Positions 31,118 to 62,021 of a stretch of DNA of 64,000 nucleotides are shown one piece after another. Source of the DNA: Armatimonadota bacterium (GTDB taxonomy: Bacteria; Armatimonadota; Fimbriimonadia; Fimbriimonadales; Fimbriimonadaceae); NCBI GenBank assembly GCA_016789105.1, contig JAEURN010000010.1, forward strand, positions 51,348-115,347. The letters run 5' to 3'. The notes under the pieces are model-generated. The model saw only the letters and a list, made by a program, of their open reading frames with translations. It was not told where the DNA came from and ran no database searches. The position numbers and the translations under genes are program-made. Positions within the stretch are counted from its first letter, which is position 1. The number at the start of each line of letters is the position of its first letter.

Positions 31118-33424
31118 ATGCGCACCGCCCCAATTCTCCCCACCCTTGCGGTTTTCGCGTTCTTAGGGGCGGTTTGGGCCCCGACAAAAGGGGAGCCGAG
31201 CCCCCAAGATCCGTATTCGTCGCTAGACAAGCAGTATAAGGCCGATGTCGGCAAGTTGTTCGACACGTACTGCATGGACTGCCACTCGGGCAAAAATCCG
31301 CCAGCCGGCCTGGATTTTGAAAAATTCACCTCGGCGAAATCGGTGGCCGGCGCGCCAAAGCTGTTCCAAAAAGTCGTCCAGAACATCCGCAGCCAGGTGA
31401 TGCCCCCGATGGATCCCTCGCCCACTTTGGATGAGCGGAACCGCATGGCGGACTGGATCTTTAGGGCCCTGAGCTTGGACGGCACTGCCGAGCAGCCGGG
31501 CCGAGTCACGATCCGGCGGCTCAACCGGACGGAATACAACTACGTGCTCCGAGACCTGCTGTACATCGACGGTGATTTCAGCAAAGATTTCCCGAGCGAC
31601 GATGTCGGCTACGGGTTCGACAACATCGGCGACGTCTTGACATTGACCCCCCTCCACATCGACATGTATTTGAAAGCGGCTCGGTCGGCCGTTGAAAAGG
31701 CGGTTGTGGTGGCCAAACCGAAAATCCGGACAGCCTCCCTGGAAAAAGGCCGGTATGCCGAGCCGAACCGCATGGCTGAGGACGGGTTCGTGTTTTTAAC
31801 GAACGGTGACTTTGTCTATGACTTCCCCGATTGCGCCCCTGGCGATTACGAGTTGCGGCTCGCGATGGGGGCTTCGGCGATTGCGGTCGGGCCGGCGATC
31901 GTCGAGGTTTACATCAACCGACAGCTCCTCCAGCGGATCCAGATCACCAAACCGGGTTTGAACGATATCGGGATCCCAATCCGGCTCCCGGCCGGGACGG
32001 CCACGGTCGGCCTGCGCTTCACCAACGACTATTACAACGCCAACGATCCCAACCCTGACCGCCGGGATCGCAACGTGCTGCTGCAAGCGATGACGTTGGA
32101 TGGGCCGCAAGGCCTTTCCGGGGAAATCCCGGATTCCCACCGGCGCCTGTTGATCGCTTTTCCGACGGCAACCAAAAACCACATGGCGGCCGCTCGGGAG
32201 GTTCTGGACCGGTTTGCCTCGCGGGCCTATCGAAGGCCGGTCACCGCTGACGAATCTAACCGGCTTTTGGCCATCTATCAACTTGTGCGGGACAACGGTG
32301 ACACTTATGAGCAGGGCATCCGAATCGGCATGGAGGCCGTGCTCGTCAACCCCAACTTCTTGTTCCGGGTTGAGTTGGATTCTTCTGCCGGCCCTCGGGA
32401 GCTCAGCGGGATCGAACTGGCGTCTCGGCTTAGCTTCTTCCTTTGGCGGTCGATGCCGGACGAAACCTTGGCCAAGCTTGGCGAAAGTGGTCAATTGAAA
32501 GACCCCAAGACCTTGGTTGCCCAAGTTAACCGGATGTTGGCCGACCCAAAGGCCGTCCGGTTTTCCCAGGACTTCTCCTCACAATGGCTCGAGATTGGGA
32601 GACTGGCCGAGCACACGGCCGATCCCGCTCAATTCCCCGGGTTCGATGATCAGCTTAAAGGCGACATGGCCCAGGAGGTCACGTTGTATTTCCAAGATAT
32701 GTTGGCAAACAGCCGTCCGGTCACGGAGTTCCTCGAAGGAAAATCGACATACCTGAACTTCCGGCTTGCGCGGCATTACCAAATCCCCGGCGACTTCGAC
32801 GAAGTGTTCCGCCGGGTCGACGTCTCGGCCAACCATCGAGGCGGGATCCTGGGAATGGGGGCCTTGCTCACGGCGACCAGCAACCCAAACCGGACTTCCC
32901 CGGTCAAACGGGGCAAGTTCATCATGGATCAACTTTTGGGCTCTGGCCCCCCGCCACCCCCGCCAAACGTCGGCGTGCTCGACGAAAGCAAAGAAGCGAT
33001 CACCTCAACCCGGATCCGTGAGAGGCTGGCCCAACACCGGAAGGATCCCGCTTGTGCCAGCTGCCACCGCCCGTTGGACGGCTACGGGTTCACGCTCGAG
33101 AATTTCGATGCGGTCGGGGTCTTCCGCACGCAAGATGGGTCATTCCCCGTCGATGCGGCGGGGGAACTGCCCGGGGGGCGGTCGGCCGTTGGGTTAGACG
33201 GGCTCAAGGGTGAACTCAGGAGCCGGAACATGGACTTCGTACGCACGCTGACGGGGAAACTTTTGATGTTCTCGCTCGGGCGCGGCATGACGCCGAGTGA
33301 CGAGGTTTGGGCGAATGCGGTTGCCAAAAAGCTCGGAAAAGACGCCACCCTGCCAAAAATCATCACAGAAATTATCCTGAGCGATTCGTTCCGGAAACGA
33401 CCAGCCAAACAAGCCGTACAATGA
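31118..33424 (+). CDS. DUF1587/1595/1592/1588/1585-type protein with cytochrome-c-like CxxCH and carbohydrate-binding-like insert
   Basis: CMDCH, RRLNRTEYN, GYGFDN, FASRAYRRP, LASRLSFFLWRSMPD, TSPVKRG, CASCH and GFTLENFDAVG motifs. Confidence 0.85.
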   Translation: MRTAPILPTLAVFAFLGAVWAPTKGEPSPQDPYSSLDKQYKADVGKLFDTYCMDCHSGKNPPAGLDFEKFTSAKSVAGAPKLFQKVVQNIRSQVMPPMDPSPTLDERNRMADWIFRALSLDGTAEQPGRVTIRRLNRTEYNYVLRDLLYIDGDFSKDFPSDDVGYGFDNIGDVLTLTPLHIDMYLKAARSAVEKAVVVAKPKIRTASLEKGRYAEPNRMAEDGFVFLTNGDFVYDFPDCAPGDYELRLAMGASAIAVGPAIVEVYINRQLLQRIQITKPGLNDIGIPIRLPAGTATVGLRFTNDYYNANDPNPDRRDRNVLLQAMTLDGPQGLSGEIPDSHRRLLIAFPTATKNHMAAAREVLDRFASRAYRRPVTADESNRLLAIYQLVRDNGDTYEQGIRIGMEAVLVNPNFLFRVELDSSAGPRELSGIELASRLSFFLWRSMPDETLAKLGESGQLKDPKTLVAQVNRMLADPKAVRFSQDFSSQWLEIGRLAEHTADPAQFPGFDDQLKGDMAQEVTLYFQDMLANSRPVTEFLEGKSTYLNFRLARHYQIPGDFDEVFRRVDVSANHRGGILGMGALLTATSNPNRTSPVKRGKFIMDQLLGSGPPPPPPNVGVLDESKEAITSTRIRERLAQHRKDPACASCHRPLDGYGFTLENFDAVGVFRTQDGSFPVDAAGELPGGRSAVGLDGLKGELRSRNMDFVRTLTGKLLMFSLGRGMTPSDEVWANAVAKKLGKDATLPKIITEIILSDSFRKRPAKQAVQ

Positions 33425-34776
33425 GTAAGCCCGCCATGGATCAAAAGATCAGCCGACGCACCATTCTCCGGGGAGCCGGGGCCTTGGTTTCACTGCCGTT
33501 TTTGGAAAGTGTCGCCCCGCGGGCAGCGTTTGGGTCTACCGTGCCATCCCGCCCGGTTCGCATGGCGTTCATGTTCGTCCCCAATGGAATCAACATGGAT
33601 CACTGGCGGCCAGCGGCACCCGGCCGCCTTGGCGAACTTCCGAGCACCCTGACTTCGCTCAACGGCTTGAAAAGCGAATTCAGCGTGATCAGCGGGCTGA
33701 GCCAAATGAAGGCCTTTGCCAACGGCGACGGTCCTGGCGACCACGCCCGGTCGGCCGCCACTTGGCTGACCGGTGTCCAGGCCCGGAAAACCGCCGGCAC
33801 CGACATCCAATGCGGGATTTCGGTTGACCAAGTTGCGGCGAATGAGCTGGGCAAGCTGACCAAATTCGCCAGCTTGGAATTGGGCTGCGAGCGCGGCGCC
33901 CTCGCCGGCAATTGCGACTCCGGCTACTCCTGCGCCTATTCGAGCGCGATTTCTTGGCGGTCGGAAAATACTCCCAACTCCAAAGAAGCCAACCCACGCG
34001 TCCTGTTTGAGCGGCTGTTCGGGTCGCCGGACGACATCGAAACGGCGGAAGCTAGGGCCAAGCGCCAAAAATATGACCTCTCCATTCTCGACTTTGTCAG
34101 TCAGGATGCCGAAGCCCTCCACAAAAAGCTGGGCACGCGCGACCAACAAAAGGTCGAGGAGTATTTCAGTTCCATCCGGGATATCGAAGCCCGCCTGAAG
34201 AACTACGAATCCCAGGCCAAACAAATGAATCTGGATGGGTTGCAGGTTCCCCGCGGCACGCCCCAAGACCGGGGCGAGCACATCCGGCTGATGGGCGACA
34301 TGATGGTTCTAGCCTTCCAGGCCGACCTGACCCGGATTTCGACCTTCATGTTTGCCAACGAAGGCAGCAACCGCGCCTACAAGGAACTCGGAATCGCTGA
34401 TGGACACCACGACATCAGCCACCACGGGAATGCCGAGGACAAGCTGGCGAAGAAAGCCCAAATCGATCGGTACCACTTGGATCAATTCGCATACATCCTG
34501 GACCGCATGTCAAAAATCGACGACGGCAACGGAACCCTGCTGGACAACTCGCTGATCTTGTTTGGCGGGGGGATCAGCGACGGCAACCGGCACAACCACG
34601 ACGACCTCCCCCTGATCTTGGCGGGGCGCGGCGGCGGCGGCGTGCCCGTGGGCCAGCACTTGGTTTACAACAACCGAACCCCTCTCACCAATCTGTTCTT
34701 GAACATGCTGGACAAAGTGGGAGTCCGCATGGACCACCTTGGAGATTCAACCGGGAAACTCCAAGGTCTGTTCTAA
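33421..34776 (+). CDS. DUF1552-family Tat-exported protein
   Basis: SRRTILRGAG...LPFLES, FVPNG, ISVDQVAA, SLELG, FERLFG, SILD, HHDISHH and HNHDDLP; coupled to the upstream gene by an ATGA overlap. Confidence 0.87.
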   Translation: MSKPAMDQKISRRTILRGAGALVSLPFLESVAPRAAFGSTVPSRPVRMAFMFVPNGINMDHWRPAAPGRLGELPSTLTSLNGLKSEFSVISGLSQMKAFANGDGPGDHARSAATWLTGVQARKTAGTDIQCGISVDQVAANELGKLTKFASLELGCERGALAGNCDSGYSCAYSSAISWRSENTPNSKEANPRVLFERLFGSPDDIETAEARAKRQKYDLSILDFVSQDAEALHKKLGTRDQQKVEEYFSSIRDIEARLKNYESQAKQMNLDGLQVPRGTPQDRGEHIRLMGDMMVLAFQADLTRISTFMFANEGSNRAYKELGIADGHHDISHHGNAEDKLAKKAQIDRYHLDQFAYILDRMSKIDDGNGTLLDNSLILFGGGISDGNRHNHDDLPLILAGRGGGGVPVGQHLVYNNRTPLTNLFLNMLDKVGVRMDHLGDSTGKLQGLF

Positions 34777-58404: not shown

Positions 58405-58433
58405 TTGTAATTGCTGAATCGGTTCAGTATAGT
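58405..58433 (+). promoter_or_regulatory. Sigma70-type promoter of the lipoprotein-lacI-pilin-GH144 unit
   Basis: TTGTAA (58405-58410), 17-nt spacer, TATAGT (58428-58433), then 7 nt to ATG 58441. Confidence 0.72.
58414..58427. promoter_or_regulatory. LacI-family operator-like palindrome
   Basis: CTGAATCGGTTCAG, with 6 of 7 positions symmetric and the AAnCGnTT core typical of LacI/GalR operators. Confidence 0.68.
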
Positions 58434-58440
58434 GATATCT

Positions 58441-58791
58441 ATGAAAGCGCACTGGTGCGCCGCTCTGGCCATGGCGGCCGTAGTCCCGATTTGTTTATCG
58501 GGGTGCGGGGACGACAACAAATTGGATCCCAACGCCACGATCATGAATGTGGAGACGGCAAAGCAAGCCCGGACTTATTACGACCGGTACAACGGCGATT
58601 ACAAGTCTTTGTCGGATGCCGACAAAAAGGCGTACCTCGAATTGTTCAAAGGTGACCAAACCAAGGCCGATAAAACTTGGGAGATCATGTCCACCCCGCC
58701 GCCGGGATCCGCCCCAACCGGTGCCAATCCCGATGCCACAGGCACCGTCCCCCCCGGGCCGGGCGACCCTCCTAAACAAGGCGGCAACTAA
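58441..58791 (+). CDS. Small hypothetical lipoprotein
   Basis: Lipobox LSGC; helical core and Pro/Gly-rich tail. Confidence 0.78.
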   Translation: MKAHWCAALAMAAVVPICLSGCGDDNKLDPNATIMNVETAKQARTYYDRYNGDYKSLSDADKKAYLELFKGDQTKADKTWEIMSTPPPGSAPTGANPDATGTVPPGPGDPPKQGGN

Positions 58792-58812
58792 CCCCGACAG
58801 GATTGCCCAAAG

Positions 58813-59859
58813 ATGCGCAAACCCACCATTGCAGACGTAGCCAAACTTGCCGGGGTCGGCAAAGTCACGGTCAGCTATGTCTTGAACGGCCAAGCCGAAA
58901 CGGCACGCATCAGCAAGCCGACGGCGGACCGGGTGGAACGCGCGGCAGCCCAGTTGAACTACAGGCCCAACGCCCATGCCCGAAACCTGGTGCGCCAAAG
59001 GGCAGACACGATCGGGGTCGTGTTCCAATATGCCGACTACTTCTCTTCGGCAAGCAGCTTTATTACCGAAGTCCTCAAGGCGGTATGCCAAGCCTGCACG
59101 GAGGCGGGAGTGGACGTGTTGTTGCACACCAAGCCGACAACAGACCCCATGGCCGAAGCAAATGCCTTGAGCGACGGTTGCGTGGACGCGGTAATCATGA
59201 TCCGCGACGAAAACGACCCCGTTCACGAAATCCTTTTGGAGCGCGAGTTCCCCACCGTCCTGTTCTTCTGCCGTTCCGACGACCCGCGCGCCTCGTTTGT
59301 CTGTTGCGACAACTACGCCGGTGGCCGGTTGGCGGTCAGCCGGTTCGCCCATTCCGGGCACCAACGCATTGCGATGCTGATGGGTGGCCCCCGATCTGTT
59401 GACGCCAGCGACCGTTACCACGGATATTGCAGTGCGCTCAAGAGCGCGGGATTGGAGTTCCGCCCTGAATTTGCCGTCCCCGAAGGGAGGGTTCCCGAGT
59501 TGCTCCCCCACCTGATGCGCCGGGACGACCACCCCACTGCCGTTTTCGCATGGTCCGACGACTGTGCGATGGAGTGCATCCGATGCCTCCAACAATTGGG
59601 TTTCCGTGTCCCGGAAGACGTCGAAGTGATCGGCTTTGACGGCACCGAGGCCGGCGCCCGGTTTTCCCCACCCTTGTCGAGTATCCGGCAACCGATCCAG
59701 GACATCGCCGCCACGGCTGTCCAAGCGGCCAAGGATCTCGTCGAGGAAAACGCCCCCCGGCGGGTCATCCTGCCCCCGACCTTGGTCGAGCGTTCGACCA
59801 CTCGCATGCAATCCCACTTGCACTCAAACAACTCTGATCCAGAGGTTCCCTTCAAATGA
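58813..59859 (+). CDS. LacI-family transcriptional regulator
   Basis: TIADVAKLAGVGKVTVSYVLNG HTH; LNYRPN..AR.L hinge; periplasmic-binding-protein-like core (IGFDG, LSSIRQP). Confidence 0.95.
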   Translation: MRKPTIADVAKLAGVGKVTVSYVLNGQAETARISKPTADRVERAAAQLNYRPNAHARNLVRQRADTIGVVFQYADYFSSASSFITEVLKAVCQACTEAGVDVLLHTKPTTDPMAEANALSDGCVDAVIMIRDENDPVHEILLEREFPTVLFFCRSDDPRASFVCCDNYAGGRLAVSRFAHSGHQRIAMLMGGPRSVDASDRYHGYCSALKSAGLEFRPEFAVPEGRVPELLPHLMRRDDHPTAVFAWSDDCAMECIRCLQQLGFRVPEDVEVIGFDGTEAGARFSPPLSSIRQPIQDIAATAVQAAKDLVEENAPRRVILPPTLVERSTTRMQSHLHSNNSDPEVPFK

Positions 59860-60647
59860 AAAAAAATGCATTCACCCTGATTGAACTGCTGGTCGTGATC
59901 GCGATCATCGCCATCTTGGCCGCCATCCTGTTCCCGGTTTTCGCCCAAGCCAAAGCGGCGGCAAAAGCTACCAACTCCATCTCCAACATGAAGCAAATCG
60001 GCACCGGTTTGCAGATTTATCTAAGCGATTACGACGACTACAACCCCCTGCGGCGCATGTCGTTGACCACGACGGCGGGCACAGGCGAGCTTTCTTGGAA
60101 GCAAACCTGCATGCCTTACATCAAAAACACGCAGATTTTCACCGACACGATGAACCCGGCGGCCCGGTATCCGGATGACACTTCGGACGATGCAATCCGC
60201 GCTTTGTGGGGCCAAGTCGTTGTTGGACCGAAGACCTCCCGCGGGTACGCCTACTACGACCAAGCGTTTTTTGTCAACCAAGATTGGAACTCCAAGACCT
60301 ATTCCATCACCCAGCTGCAACAACCGGCCAACACGATCCTGATTGCCGAGCACAAACGGCTTTGGGTGGACTTGGGGCCGTGGCTGAACTGGACCAAGGT
60401 CGATCCCGATCCGGATGGCGTCAACCGTCTTGGCGGCTGGAGTTGGGGTGGCGGCAAATGGGAGGACAAGGCAATGGTCTTGATCTTCGGCGACAGCCAC
60501 GCCAAACGCACGGCCATGCGGGCCACCTGCGGCAAGGACAACGAGCTGAACATGTGGAACTACCAGCGCAACACCCTGGCCACCCAATCGCTCGGCAACC
60601 TGACCTGGGTTGACACGTTCTGCCAAACCATGCCGGCCAACTTTTAG
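59856..60647 (+). CDS. Prepilin-type N-terminal cleavage/methylation domain protein (DUF1559-like)
   Basis: NA|FTLIELLVVIAIIAILAAILFP, SNMKQIG...Y..DYDD and C-terminal IFGDSHAK; ATGA overlap with lacI. Confidence 0.92.
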   Translation: MKKNAFTLIELLVVIAIIAILAAILFPVFAQAKAAAKATNSISNMKQIGTGLQIYLSDYDDYNPLRRMSLTTTAGTGELSWKQTCMPYIKNTQIFTDTMNPAARYPDDTSDDAIRALWGQVVVGPKTSRGYAYYDQAFFVNQDWNSKTYSITQLQQPANTILIAEHKRLWVDLGPWLNWTKVDPDPDGVNRLGGWSWGGGKWEDKAMVLIFGDSHAKRTAMRATCGKDNELNMWNYQRNTLATQSLGNLTWVDTFCQTMPANF

Positions 60648-60672
60648 GCTCGCAGAGTTCCAAGCACTGACC

Positions 60673-60698
60673 TGGGCCGCACCCTTCGGTGCGGCCCA
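60673..60698. other. GC-rich 11-bp stem-loop without U-tail between the pilin-like and glycosidase genes
   Basis: tgggccgcacc-cttc-ggtgcggccca. Confidence 0.65.
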
Positions 60699-60719
60699 AC
60701 CCTTCCACCACACCCCCTG

Positions 60720-62021
60720 ATGATCCAGCCCCTCCTCCTGTTGGCCCTCAATTCAACGGCTTCGACCGCTCCTCGCGGAGAGGCCCTTCTGACCGAGCTC
60801 TCCAAAAAGTCGGTCGCTTACTTTTGGGAAAACTCCAACCCCCAAACCGGATTCACCCTGGATCGGGCTCCTAACTATCCGGGTGCGGCGGCCGAAAACG
60901 CGACGATCAGTTCCATCGCCGCAACGGGCTATGCCCTGAGCGCCTATTGCATCGGCGTTGACCGGGGTTGGCTGGGCAGAGCAGAAGCCAAAAAGCGAAC
61001 CGTGCTGACCTTGGGGAACGTGTTGACAAAACTGCAAGGCAACAAGGGTTGGTACTTCCATTTCGTCGATTGGACGACCGGCAAACGCGAGTGGAATTCT
61101 GAATTGTCCACGATCGATTCCGCCCTGCTTTTCGCCGGGGTGGAAATGGCCCGGGGCTACTGGGCCGACCCCGAGGTGAGCAAACTGTGCGACCAGATCA
61201 TGGGCCGGGTGGATTGGCACTGGTTCCTGACCGACGGCGGCAAGAACATGAACTCCCTGACCTTCAGTATGGGTTGGTCGCCTGAGAACGGATTTTTGGA
61301 AGCCCGGTGGAACGGCTTTTACGAAAGCATGTTCCTGTACATCATCGCGCTGGGCAACGACGACAAATTGGAACCGGAGATCTGGACGGCGTTCCGGCGG
61401 TCGCGTTTCCAATGGCAAGGCATCGACCTCTTGCACGGGGCCGCCTTGTTCATCCACCAGATGTCGCAAGCGTATCTGCCCATGCAAGGCAAACGGGACG
61501 TCTTGGGCTACGATTATTGGGTTGAGGGCCGCAACATGACCCTGGCCAACCGGCTCTATTGCAAGCTCAACCCCAAGGGCTTCAAGGCGTACGGCCCGGA
61601 TATCTGGGGGCTTTCGGCGTGCGACATCCCCGGTGGCTATGGGGCACCGGGTGCCCCCGTGCCTTCGGGTGAGCCCTTCGACAACGGGACGCTTGCCCCG
61701 GCCTCGGCTGTCGCCAGCGTGATGTATACGCCGGAATTGAGCATGCAGGCGGCGGACGCCTACGTCACCCAATTGCCAGAAAGCTACGGCCGGTATGGGT
61801 TCACCACGGGCATCAACCCCAGTCAGGGTTGGAAATCCACCCACGTGATCGGCATCGATATCGGCCAGATGATGCTGGCGATCGAGGCCCACCAAAACGG
61901 GAAACCTTACAAGTGGATGATGTCCAACCCCCGCATTGCCAAGGGAATGAAACGCGCCGGATTCCACGAAACCCAAGAAGGCCCCTTGGAATCGCGCCCC
62001 CTATACCTGCAGCCGTACTGA
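60720..62021 (+). CDS. Secreted glucoamylase-like / GH144-type glycoside hydrolase (candidate beta-1,2-glucanase)
   Basis: SIAATGYAL, GWYFHF, ELSTIDSALL, MGWSPE, WNGFYE, LFIHQ, YGPDIWGLSA, DNGTLAP, YGRYGF and IGIDIG match the DUF3131/Glycoamylase family pattern. Confidence 0.82.
   Translation: MIQPLLLLALNSTASTAPRGEALLTELSKKSVAYFWENSNPQTGFTLDRAPNYPGAAAENATISSIAATGYALSAYCIGVDRGWLGRAEAKKRTVLTLGNVLTKLQGNKGWYFHFVDWTTGKREWNSELSTIDSALLFAGVEMARGYWADPEVSKLCDQIMGRVDWHWFLTDGGKNMNSLTFSMGWSPENGFLEARWNGFYESMFLYIIALGNDDKLEPEIWTAFRRSRFQWQGIDLLHGAALFIHQMSQAYLPMQGKRDVLGYDYWVEGRNMTLANRLYCKLNPKGFKAYGPDIWGLSACDIPGGYGAPGAPVPSGEPFDNGTLAPASAVASVMYTPELSMQAADAYVTQLPESYGRYGFTTGINPSQGWKSTHVIGIDIGQMMLAIEAHQNGKPYKWMMSNPRIAKGMKRAGFHETQEGPLESRPLYLQPY

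Follow-up and report, generated by a model that had tools for sequence, protein, structure and literature searches.

A prepilin-type gene that overlaps a lacI gene and directly precedes a glucanase gene raises the question of what a pilin could contribute to the use of a polysaccharide. This arrangement occupies positions 58405-62021 of a 64-kb stretch of Fimbriimonadaceae DNA (the window), and the original prediction cast the pilin-like protein as a stand-in for the substrate-binding component of a utilisation locus.

A four-gene unit with a conserved order and operator

All four forward-strand open reading frames of the interval proved real, and their order, from 58441 to 62021, was as described: lipoprotein, LacI, prepilin-type protein and GH144-type glucanase. 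The lipoprotein (58441..58791, + strand, 116 aa) starts at a conserved ATG at 58441, the TTG at 58411 taken by the ORF finder being a mere upstream extension. It reads MKAHW...LSGC|G, a signal peptide with an LSGC lipobox, in agreement with the small lipoprotein claimed. The signal peptide is followed by roughly 50 residues of helical core and then by a tail rich in Pro and Gly; in the AF2 model, residues 37-84 form three short helices (pLDDT ~83-88) and the remainder is disordered. The protein matched nothing in Pfam or NCBIfam and had no relative in the PDB. Across five aligned sequences the Gly-Cys of the lipobox is kept, with a loose consensus of ~AKQAR...DKK.YL...AKK.W..M.NPP. The second gene (58813..59859, + strand, 348 aa) encodes a LacI-family repressor, as claimed, with Pfam LacI HTH (3.1e-15) and Peripla_BP_3/1 domains (3e-35 for Peripla_BP_3), and falls under all NCBIfam equivalog cut-offs. 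The window holds a single LacI gene and a single prepilin motif, and the two genes overlap at the predicted ATGA (59856 versus 59859), the Shine-Dalgarno sequence of the pilin gene lying within the 3' end of lacI.

A sigma-70-type promoter-like site (58405..58433, + strand; TTGTAA-17-TATAGT, 9/12 matches) begins at the first position of the interval and ends 7 nt 5' of the lipoprotein ATG. Overlapping this promoter is the operator CTGAAnCGnTTCAG, which occurs once in the window, the predicted LacI-type palindrome CTGAATCGGTTCAG at 58414..58427 being the sole match. The single promoter proposed for the four genes has a counterpart in a promoter-like site and a conserved operator upstream of the lipoprotein gene. 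In four related loci (L003, L005, L126 and L128) the operator was found 26-40 nt 5' of the first cassette gene; in L127 it also stands ahead of GH94, of lacI and of an operon with a second GH144 gene, and in L226 it is placed between GH94 and the pilin gene. Its background was three matches in 856 kb of unrelated loci, and a second set of 674 kb gave no match outside L226. Since the operator lies 5' of GH94 phosphorylase, ABC-importer, GH1 and second GH144 genes in relatives, we take it to mark a predicted beta-1,2-glucan regulon.

The LacI-pilin-GH144 order is kept in nine ortholog contexts with unrelated flanks (the window/L001, L003/L004, L005, L126, L127, L128, L249/L250, L251/L252 and L253). 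In a tenth, rearranged locus, L226, the genes for the pilin, the lipoprotein, LacI, GH94 and GH144 still cluster, and the lipoprotein gene is present in seven of the contexts as well as in L226. This recurrent gene order and the operator on the promoter rule out a chance neighbourhood; synteny and operator together support the prediction that the four genes are one conserved unit under LacI control.

Transcription of the locus in situ

The locus is transcribed in situ. In four metatranscriptomes from wastewater and biofilm, the organism being at home in activated sludge and biofilm, assembled coverage within the locus was deepest over the pilin gene. Mismatch-free long contigs gave depths of 12-18 for the pilin, 4.5-5.8 for the lipoprotein, 3-6 for guaB and from about 0 to 3 for GH144. 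Contig depth reflects expression poorly, and the N-terminus of the pilin, being conserved, is a target for cross-mapping. Contigs started at 58460/58461 in three runs and ended at 60664-60672 in three of four. The spacer that separates the pilin stop codon from the start of GH144 holds an 11-bp GC-rich hairpin that lacks a U-tract (60673..60698, + strand), and the folding energy of the 86-nt stretch 60640-60725 as a whole is -28.7 kcal/mol (z = -3.3). L003, L126 and L128 also carry hairpins in this spacer, and these are non-homologous.

The hydrolase and its probable substrate

The last gene (60720..62021, + strand, 433 aa) encodes a candidate GH144-type endo-beta-1,2-glucanase. It matches PF10091 (1.8e-49), and its nearest solved structures, 8xul (XcSGL, 3.9e-56) and 5gzh (CpSGL, 2.7e-35), are both GH144. 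Measured against the catalytic and clan residues defined for SGL enzymes (PMC12102758), E202 aligns with the general acids E211 of CpSGL and E239 of XcSGL, the clan F and Y are kept, and an Asp, the candidate acidic base, corresponds to CpSGL E142. These matches and intact residues agree with the original assignment and support the prediction of a GH144-type beta-1,2-glucanase. The GH94 protein of linked loci is nearest to the GH94 domain of cyclic beta-1,2-glucan synthase (6e-127, versus 1e-96 for cellobiose phosphorylase). In every hydrolase ortholog a hydrophobic N-terminus of 15-20 residues, free of basic residues, precedes the conserved domain, and export via this short leader is plausible. 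Since a signal peptide is missing from PgSGL1 and PgSGL2, two characterised members of the SGL clan (PMC12102758), we infer export rather than assert it.

A pilin-like protein specific to the regulon

The 263-aa protein between repressor and hydrolase (59856..60647, + strand) carries a prepilin-type (class III) signal peptide. The predicted A|F cleavage site withstood comparison with orthologs, A-1|F+1 and E+5 being invariant in 52/52. Ala at -1 is uncommon among prepilin peptidase substrates; E+5 and a highly conserved alpha1-N are hallmarks of filament-packing subunits. The aromatic-rich middle and the FGDSHAK stretch described earlier were also recovered: W, Y and F make up 12.4% of the head domain, and all 52 orthologs have D213, with H215 and K217 at 90% conservation or more. 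Nor do the orthologs vary at C225, at C256 or at numerous aromatic and acidic positions of the head. Placement in the expanded pilin family held in part. Pfam gave N_methyl at 32 bits, whereas DUF1559/SBP_bac_10 (28.5 bits) covered only profile positions 2-77 of 268 and the H-X9-DG model gave no match at E up to 0.01. The AF2 model is confident (pLDDT 94) and lollipop-like: an N-terminal helix of 51 residues leads into beta strands. A Foldseek search of the PDB with this model returned nothing with E below 0.3, and Pfam and NCBIfam recognised no CBM or SBP domain in the head. The closest head belongs to the pilin of L226, the other one linked to GH144 and GH94 (28% identity, 2e-17). We read the protein as a regulon-specific pilin-like subunit.

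The N-terminus is nearest to GspG/PulG-type and PilA-type models, which would suit a cargo-specific pseudopilin that, as part of a shared type II pseudopilus, recruits the co-encoded GH144 (in other cassettes GH5, GH20 and others) or pushes it over the outer membrane and binds no glycan. The pilin gene lies directly 5' of an exported-looking hydrolase in every locus, and other LacI-coupled pilins also stand ahead of exported enzymes. The GspG equivalog score of 33 bits, however, is far under the cut-off of 88.85, L127 and L249 each carry two GH144 genes for one pilin, and pilin transcripts are apparently far above those of GH144, a pattern that suits a structural or binding role at least as well as a one-to-one adaptor. 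Moreover, we know of no characterised type II system in which alternative major pseudopilins determine cargo. We therefore consider a secretion role unlikely, even though the cultured relative Fimbriimonas ginsengisoli has PulD, PulE and 79 PulG-like genes alongside PilB/C/D/Q/M and six PilT (PMC4072686).

Importers beside the pilin in related loci

As predicted, the unit contains no ABC, MFS, TonB or SusCD transporter and no pilus assembly gene. Homologs of the GH94, ABC, permease and GH1 genes of related loci were absent from the 64-kb window, and pilus assembly genes from the cassette and from the ten large window ORFs scanned. In L127, L249 and L250, by contrast with the window, the gene string that contains the pilin also contains an ABC importer with a fused solute-binding domain, and in L005 an importer adjoins the cassette on the opposite strand. 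Since the pilin coexists with a binding-protein-dependent importer, it does not replace one, and the idea of a stand-in for the substrate-binding component finds no support. Given the importers of relatives and the operators of L127, the missing transporter is a local arrangement rather than a property of the system.

The same proximity would suit a periplasmic helper that forms no filament, is held in the inner membrane by its hydrophobic helix once processed and, bindosome-like, gathers oligosaccharides or docks GH144 beside the ABC importer. Assembly genes are absent nearby, and there is an archaeal precedent in sugar uptake proteins with pilin-type leaders (PMC3047682). Against this stand a head with neither SBP fold nor SBP-family match, the invariant E+5 and conserved alpha1-N, which point to filament packing, and an importer already served by its fused SBP, and we regard such a helper as improbable.

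A tentative model for glucan capture

Our preferred reading, to which we give a little less than an even chance, is that the cassette is the core of a LacI-controlled beta-1,2-glucan regulon with a glucan-induced filament pilin in Fimbriimonadaceae and other Armatimonadota. Without inducer, LacI would sit on CTGAAnCGnTTCAG over the promoter and silence the lipoprotein-lacI-pilin-GH144 unit. Basal exported GH144 would cleave linear or cyclic beta-1,2-glucans shed by other bacteria, and the resulting sophoro-oligosaccharides would enter by an ABC importer and be degraded by GH94 phosphorylase and GH1 glucosidase, whose genes, like those of the importer, would be located elsewhere in this genome and stand beside the cassette in relatives. 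A small product would then lift LacI repression. The pilin would be a dedicated subunit of type IV filaments, induced by glucan; prepilin peptidase would cleave it at A|F, and pilus or type II machinery whose genes lie elsewhere would assemble it. Its most likely job would be to bind, hold or reel in glucan at the envelope for the glucanase and importer or, more broadly, to work on the glucan or its enzyme in the cell envelope, with the lipid-anchored three-helix lipoprotein as partner. In this scheme we infer repression by LacI, induction, export, the assembly of filaments and the binding of glucan.

Could the pilin instead be an adhesin apart from catabolism? Sugars would then switch pili through LacI for attachment to flocs or to neighbours that produce glucan, the hydrolase being a mere co-regulated neighbour. 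The sludge and biofilm habitat would fit, F. ginsengisoli is fimbriated and non-motile with pili thought to serve attachment (PMC4072686), and Caldicellulosiruptor bescii has polysaccharide-induced adhesion pilins (bioRxiv 10.1101/614800). The pilin is nevertheless kept in the beta-1,2-glucan regulon despite deep divergence (44-84% identity), even in the rearranged L226, which makes this account very unlikely. Since adhesion to the substrate polymer would in practice be capture, it differs from glucan capture only if the ligand is not glucan.

Relation to known systems

Cellulolytic Firmicutes have type IV pilins that bind polysaccharides, among them those of Ruminococcus albus. C. bescii PilA is polysaccharide-induced, mediates attachment and itself binds the polymer (bioRxiv 10.1101/614800); induction by polysaccharide would be shared with our cassette, but the pilus locus of C. 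bescii is complete and has a single major pilin, whereas here there are many orphans, each with a sugar regulator and enzyme, and binding is putative. The SGL (GH144)/GH94 clusters of the Nakajima group (PMC12102758) resemble the cassette in combining GH144, GH94, a sugar ABC importer, a beta-glucosidase and a LacI-type regulator. Unlike them, the Armatimonadota cassette always has a pilin between lacI and GH144 and is usually led by the small lipoprotein, and the importer and phosphorylase are unlinked in the window's genome. The literature that we searched gave no description of a pilin or small lipoprotein in beta-1,2-glucan clusters.

Bacteroidota SusC/SusD PULs likewise unite a substrate-specific, co-regulated glycanase with non-catalytic envelope proteins, including a lipoprotein, in a modular build repeated with different GH families. 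They differ in their TonB-dependent SusC and SusD, both absent here, in their hybrid two-component or ECF regulators, as against a cytoplasmic LacI, and in their non-catalytic component, which here is pilin-like. The Sulfolobus bindosome, in which sugar-binding proteins with class III signal peptides are assembled by BasABCEF (PMC3047682), offers a parallel in pilin-type leaders, type IV pilus-like assembly and ABC importers, although assembly and joint work would be presumed here. Its true solute-binding proteins contrast with our pilin-like head of ~220 residues, which has no SBP signature, in a diderm bacterium with unlinked assembly genes. With GspG/PulG and the PulG-like, DUF1559 and H-X9-DG proteins of Planctomycetota and Verrucomicrobiota, the pilin shares the N-methylation motif, a long alpha1, a C-terminal beta-hairpin that bears D-[GS]-H and numerous orphan paralogues; it departs from them in its sub-threshold GspG score, its partial DUF1559 match and the direct LacI coupling seen in the Armatimonadota sample. 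In planctomycetes, pili-like fibres of crateriform structures bind dextran, which accumulates in the periplasm (PMC5394234). They may offer a glycan entry route that bypasses SusCD, but these fibres have no assigned genes and belong to another phylum, and a link to the pilin family is purely hypothetical.

LacI coupling of Armatimonadota pilins

The expected association of pilin-like genes with LacI genes was borne out by counting. A LacI or GntR-PBP1 regulator lies directly upstream of 12 of 82 evaluable Armatimonadota pilin-like genes (p ~4e-11 against a 1% background), and CAZyme neighbours are frequent among these copies; where a locus holds such a regulator, it occupies exactly this position in 14/17. 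The wider idea of sugar regulation of pilins gains support from this enrichment. A separate genome sample showed direct LacI coupling in 3 of ~12 evaluable Armatimonadota genes; the only cases from other phyla were two Victivallales genes with a weak LacI-like match 64-238 nt upstream and a Fuerstiella gene with one 544 nt away. Since ~85% of the sampled Armatimonadota pilin-like genes are uncoupled and only about one fifth of downstream neighbours are carbohydrate-related, glycan work cannot account for the expansion as a whole. The conserved pilin-glucanase link is a testable clue to the purpose of many orphan Armatimonadota pilins. Neighbours of the LacI-coupled pilins include GH5 (twice), GH20, GH172, GH141-like, beta-helix, GDSL and CBM9 proteins.

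The cassette and its conservation

ORF calling confirmed that the four genes originally predicted on the forward strand, at 58.4-62.0 kb, are all present as claimed. They lie between guaB upstream and a convergent aminotransferase gene downstream, and the sequence of the locus was found again in activated-sludge metagenomes. The first ORF (58441-58791) encodes a small lipoprotein whose signal peptide carries a lipobox (MKAHWCAALAMAAVVPICLSGC/GDD...). Profile searches assigned it to no Pfam or NCBIfam family and detected no relative in the PDB, a word-indexed homology search returned three close relatives, and an AF2 model built on a shallow alignment was confident for a helical core of 50 residues only. 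The second ORF (58813-59859) combines a LacI helix-turn-helix (PF00356, 3.1e-15, residues 5-53) with Peripla_BP_3/1 domains (PF13377, 3e-35; PF00532, 1.8e-14), which is the architecture of the LacI/GalR family, an N-terminal HTH followed by a type 1 PBP-like effector domain. It scores too low for every named NCBIfam equivalog (RbsR, PurR, CcpA, GalR and others); the best match is RbsR-like, with 175 bits where 382 are required. The stop codon of lacI is overlapped through ATGA by the third ORF (59856-60647), the pilin-like gene, whose product begins MKKNA/FTLIELLVVIAIIAILAAILFPVF with predicted cleavage after the A. The fourth ORF (60720-62021) encodes a hydrolase with a PF10091 domain.

More than 120 full-length relatives of the pilin-like protein, at 44-84% identity, were recovered from Fimbriimonadaceae, Chthonomonas and other Armatimonadota. 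We examined nine ortholog contexts, namely the window (L001) and the contigs or contig pairs L003/L004, L005, L126, L127, L128, L249/L250, L251/L252 and L253. The order LacI, pilin, PF10091 was kept in all nine with entirely different flanks, and in seven a small ORF with a conserved lipobox precedes the cassette; five aligned copies of this ORF share the loose consensus ~AKQAR...DKK.YL...AKK.W..M.NPP. Since the 64-kb window holds one prepilin motif and one LacI gene, the two overlap, and the gene order is conserved, the cassette is not a chance arrangement. A tenth locus, L226, is rearranged, with GH144, LacI and GH94 genes on one side and a diverged pilin and a small lipoprotein opposite. 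The head of its pilin, 28% identical to that of the window pilin, is the best non-ortholog match, and retention of the linkage despite rearrangement argues for a shared function. Directly 5' of the cassette in L251 (4440-6467, +) lies a gene for a 675-aa DUF4964/DUF5127/GtaA six-hairpin protein, which may be a glucan-active enzyme.

A probable beta-1,2-glucan pathway with two additional proteins

The best solved relatives of the hydrolase are the GH144 beta-1,2-glucanases XcSGL (8xul), matched at 3.9e-56 over residues 21-416 and thus over the full length, and CpSGL (5gzh, 2.7e-35); BDI_3064 (5z06) was matched at 2.8e-34. XcSGL has been assigned to GH144, and its residues E239, F286 and Y367, which correspond to E211, F268 and Y330 of CpSGL, define the SGL clan (PMC12102758). 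In HMMER alignments these positions are occupied in the hydrolase by E202, the F of 'AALFIHQ' and the Y of 'PGGYGAP', while the position of CpSGL E142, named as a candidate acidic base (PMC12102758), is taken by the D of 'STIDSALL'. On these alignments the hydrolase is a candidate GH144/SGL-clan endo-beta-1,2-glucanase. The start of the protein (window 60720-60780) and of its orthologs in L003, L005, L126, L127 and L128 is a hydrophobic stretch of ~15-20 residues ahead of the conserved domain that contains no Lys or Arg in any of them (for example MIQPLLLLALNSTASTAP); if these N-termini are signal peptides, the usual positive n-region is missing.

The gene string continues in L127 and L249/L250 with a GH94 phosphorylase, an ABC importer, a second permease and a GH1 glucosidase, and in L005 a GH94 gene and importer adjoin the cassette divergently. 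The L127 GH94 protein matched the GH94 domain of cyclic beta-1,2-glucan synthase at 6e-127 versus 1e-96 for cellobiose phosphorylases. Taken together, the GH144 residues and the linked GH94, importer and GH1 genes make the regulon look like a pathway for beta-1,2-glucan and sophoro-oligosaccharides to which two extra proteins have been added. Such a pathway is already described for other bacteria. A tblastn search of the 64-kb window found no homolog of the GH94, SBP-permease, permease or GH1 proteins, so these genes must be elsewhere in the genome. The importer is itself unusual among CUT1-type sugar importers in that an SBP_bac_1/8 domain is fused to a BPD_transp_1 permease in a protein of 800-811 aa (L005:1710-4145, -; L127:11066-13471, +; L249:10054-12456, +).

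The original prediction had the pilin-like protein substitute for the substrate-binding or capture component of a polysaccharide utilization locus. Its four genes stood, and its interpretation did so in part only: the substitution is contradicted by loci that encode the pilin together with an importer bearing a solute-binding domain. Neither a TonB-dependent transporter nor a SusD-like lipoprotein was found in the cassette or in the Pfam-annotated ortholog loci. We propose that LacI would repress the cassette unit from its operator, that a basal level of exported GH144 would cleave beta-1,2-glucans to oligosaccharides, that the ABC importer would take these up for degradation by GH94 and GH1, and that a degradation product would then release LacI. 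This scheme, taken as a whole, is very probably correct.

A candidate operator, a promoter-like site and an intergenic hairpin

A promoter-like site (TTGTAA-17-TATAGT) at 58405-58433 contains a candidate LacI operator, the 14-bp palindrome CTGAATCGGTTCAG with a central CG, at 58414-58427. When up to one mismatch was allowed, this was the single match in the window to CTGAANCGNTTCAG. In L003, L005, L126 and L128 the same palindrome stands 26-40 nt ahead of the gene that opens the cassette; in L127 it precedes lacI, GH94 and a divergent operon alike, and in L226 it occupies the intergenic region between GH94 and the pilin gene. Unrelated DNA contained three copies in 856 kb, and none was found outside L226 in a set of 674 kb. 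This distribution is the signature expected of a LacI operator that defines a regulon, and we infer from it that LacI binds the palindrome. The divergent unit (L127:15654-18139, -; L249:14687-16801, -) couples a second GH144 paralogue with a conserved 381-383-aa protein (381 aa in L127) that has no Pfam family. The L127 copy stands behind the same operator (L127 18181), and the 381-383-aa protein is a further regulon member.

The lipoprotein ATG (58441) follows 7 nt after the end of the -10 hexamer TATAGT, and RNA contigs from three metatranscriptome runs start at 58460/58461 (window 58428-58461); the lipoprotein mRNA may therefore be leaderless or nearly so. L126, L128 and L226 differ in this respect, with the operator 3' of the -10 hexamer and a Shine-Dalgarno sequence present. 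A GC-rich, 11-bp hairpin follows the pilin gene at 60673-60698, and the same spacer in L003, L126 and L128 is filled by hairpins of non-homologous sequence. The hairpin was rejected as an intrinsic terminator, as it has no U-tract and the terminator scan made no call. RNA contigs stop just short of it in three of four runs, which could also be caused by strain variation or by assembly breaks at a GC-rich hairpin; an attenuator or stabilizer is possible.

Transcription in wastewater and biofilm communities

Contigs matching the locus were present in four wastewater or biofilm metatranscriptomes (runs X25-X28), and the long contigs cited here have zero mismatches. Pilin-gene contigs at 59596-60672, 59954-60743 and 59996-60667 reached a depth of 12-18, compared with 4.5-5.8 for the lipoprotein gene (from 58460/58461), 3-6 for guaB and ~0-3 for GH144. 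The middle of lacI was uncovered in X25-X27 and had a depth of 2.1 in X28 (59010-59230). The pilin gene is thus used in situ, and the pattern fits an abundant structural component with a scarcer enzyme, contig depth being a crude measure. A promoter-like site within lacI (TTGACG-18-GATATT, 59399-59428) was weighed as the source of the pilin-rich RNA; pilin contigs begin 130-180 nt 3' of it. Short RNA contigs with a depth of up to 60 pile up over the conserved pilin N-terminus (window 59883-59920). They stem from cross-mapped transcripts of many pilins, paralogous or foreign, which indicates that such pilin genes are widely transcribed in sludge.

The pilin-like protein

Both generic profiles for the pilin N-terminus exceeded their cut-offs (PF07963, 32 bits; TIGR02532, 31 bits). 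The protein has the features of a class III signal peptide, with a short basic leader, F+1, E+5 and a hydrophobic alpha1-N of ~20 residues, and with Ala rather than Gly at -1. Across 52 orthologs A-1, F+1 and E+5 are invariant, as is nearly all of the N-terminal helix (positions 5-29, with one position at 90%). Head residues invariant in the same set are C225, C256, Y55, D58, D60, W81, Y88, D97 and N100, together with D107, R129-G-Y131, E165, K167 and W251. The C-terminal FGDSHAK stretch to which the original prediction drew attention is indeed conserved, with D213 invariant and H215 and K217 present in at least 90% of these orthologs. In the AF2 model (pLDDT 94), a 51-residue helix (8-58) is followed by six strands and short helices, and FGDSHAK sits at the turn between the two strands (206-211 and 216-220) of a beta-hairpin and so looks structural. 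With the two invariant Cys, the model may correspond to the lollipop fold of type IV pilins, in which a long N-terminal helix packs on an antiparallel sheet and a disulfide lies near the C-terminus. Aromatic residues (W+Y+F) make up 12.4% of the head. Foldseek comparison of the model with the PDB gave a best E of 0.32 and no pilin, CBM or lectin analogue.

Matches to the Verru_Chthon, GspG, ComG and PilA equivalogs were confined to the N-terminal motif and below cut-off, and these assignments were rejected. The Verru_Chthon models reached 24 bits (TIGR02596, cut-off 70) and 18 bits (TIGR02599, cut-off 256), at the N-terminal motif alone. The GspG equivalog TIGR01710 gave 33.3 bits where 88.85 are required, and its match was confined to the N-terminal 60 residues. 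A cargo-specific secretion pseudopilin, as could serve the hydrolase encoded next door, is unlikely in our judgment. Pfam detected no pilus or type II secretion gene among ten large window ORFs. No H-X9-DG model of NCBIfam matched the pilin with an E of 0.01 or lower, and its F-G-D-S-H motif lacks a His ten positions earlier. Given the failed equivalog cut-offs and the absent H-X9-DG match, this is a class III signal peptide protein that has its own head domain. PF07596 (DUF1559/SBP_bac_10) scored 28.5 bits (cut-off 23.3), covering only profile positions 2-77 of 268, and the protein's one 'SBP' label is the historical name of that family. No SBP-family match in Pfam or NCBIfam was found behind the pilin leader, which places the protein outside the bindosome type; true SBP_bac_1 domains are on the separate ABC importer gene. 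That the protein acts as a non-filamentous, membrane-anchored periplasmic helper is improbable to about the same degree as the pseudopilin reading, and the conserved assembly hallmarks speak for a filament. We regard a co-regulated adhesin as very unlikely.

We tentatively favor, at somewhat short of even confidence, a glucan-induced type IV filament subunit that would bind or handle the polymer at the envelope. This reading draws on the assembly hallmarks (E+5 and the conserved alpha1-N), on the obligatory place of the pilin in the regulon and its apparent abundance, and on a head domain that differs from cassette to cassette and has its nearest non-ortholog in the other pilin linked to GH144. 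It also draws on precedents: C. bescii PilA is induced by xylan and binds it (bioRxiv 10.1101/614800), planctomycetes possess dextran-binding fibres (PMC5394234), and the archaeal bindosome provides a precedent for sugar-binding proteins with pilin leaders (PMC3047682). Assembly machinery exists in the family, since Fimbriimonas ginsengisoli encodes PilB/C/D/Q/M, six PilT and 79 PulG-like genes (PMC4072686).

LacI-pilin coupling at other loci

A first scan of genome contigs with a generic pilin N-terminus yielded 120 loci from many phyla. LacI stood directly 5' of the pilin in 3 of ~12 evaluable Armatimonadota loci: L007, where GH5 follows, L060, with GH172/DUF2961 and a GH141-like protein close by, and L063. 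Outside Armatimonadota, the scan found only two Victivallales genes with a weak LacI-like match 64-238 nt upstream and one Fuerstiella gene with LacI 544 nt upstream. A second scan, of metagenome contigs with the Armatimonadota-type N-terminus AIIAILAAILFPVF, returned 128 pilin-like genes, 82 of them evaluable (at least 700 nt of upstream sequence). The predicted association with LacI was borne out by this count, as a LacI or GntR-HTH/PBP1 regulator lies directly upstream on the same strand in 12 of the 82 (p ~4e-11 versus a 1% background), roughly one in seven of the Armatimonadota pilin-like genes sampled. Any such regulator occurs at 17 loci, and at 14 of these it occupies that exact position.

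Several coupled pilins have carbohydrate-related neighbors. In L219 (807-3441) a LacI fragment, a pilin-like gene, a 78-aa lipoprotein and GH5 stand in a row; the logic is that of the window (pilin, mini-lipoprotein, glycanase) with unrelated sequences, and a CBM_4_9 match in the GH5 protein is weak and below cut-off. Coupled pilins neighbor a beta-helix protein in L162, GH20 in L197, and a GDSL esterase and a giant CBM9 protein in L221. L203 (480-11765) is a multi-pilin version of the module: a GntR-HTH/PBP1 regulator precedes three tandem pilin-like genes (381, 377 and 445 aa), and upstream stand one more pilin-like gene and a CBM9 protein of 1390 aa. Among the downstream neighbors of all sampled pilins, carbohydrate-related families account for ~20% (aggregate Pfam search, 40 neighbors), so CAZyme linkage of the entire class was rejected, and the LacI-pilin-CAZyme cassette is a recurring module rather than the rule for the whole expansion. 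Pilin N-termini of Armatimonadota or PVC type also turned up in contigs binned as Actinomycetota, Bifidobacterium, Clostridium, Gammaproteobacteria and others (L014, L019, L029, L086, L100, L102), which are probably binning contaminants in public MAGs.

Discussion

The enzyme, repressor and pathway described here all belong to known families and are unremarkable in themselves. The novelty lies in the conserved insertion, within a sugar regulon, of a dedicated pilin-like protein and a mini-lipoprotein, and in the LacI-pilin coupling seen more widely. No description of LacI-pilin-GH cassettes was found in the literature searched, which is weak evidence as most subscription journals lay outside the search. 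Orphan pilin genes of PulG-like or DUF1559-like type number in the tens to hundreds per genome in Armatimonadota, Planctomycetota, Verrucomicrobiota and Lentisphaerota, and the literature searched yielded no functional assignment for them. The present locus ties one such orphan to a substrate (beta-1,2-glucan), a repressor, a 14-bp operator and a characterized enzyme family, so the cassette offers a concrete and experimentally tractable way into this unexplained expansion.

Capture or import of glycan by the pilin, if true, would add a third architecture for using polysaccharides to those of the SusCD loci and of the ABC-based loci in Gram-positive bacteria, and it would bear on how scavengers in sludge and soil harvest the periplasmic glucans of other bacteria. 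A broader proposal, which we hold to be rather doubtful, is a modular system of glycan acquisition in which substrate-specific pilins, one for each sugar-responsive LacI-type regulon, and their small lipoprotein partners would share one retractile type IV machine, in Armatimonadota and perhaps also in PVC phyla. The filament would bind polymer extracellularly and draw it in to, or across, the outer membrane, much as competence pili do with DNA. Were this true, polysaccharides would have an uptake route independent of TonB and SusCD, and some of the large orphan pilin-like expansion would be accounted for.

Elsewhere in the window, the gene at 31118-33424 (+) of this Armatimonadota genome encodes a 768-aa protein with planctomycete-type PSD/PSCyt domains (DUF1592, 1588, 1587, 1595, 1585) as well as CBM60 and cytochrome c signatures, and is overlapped by the next ORF (33307-34776).
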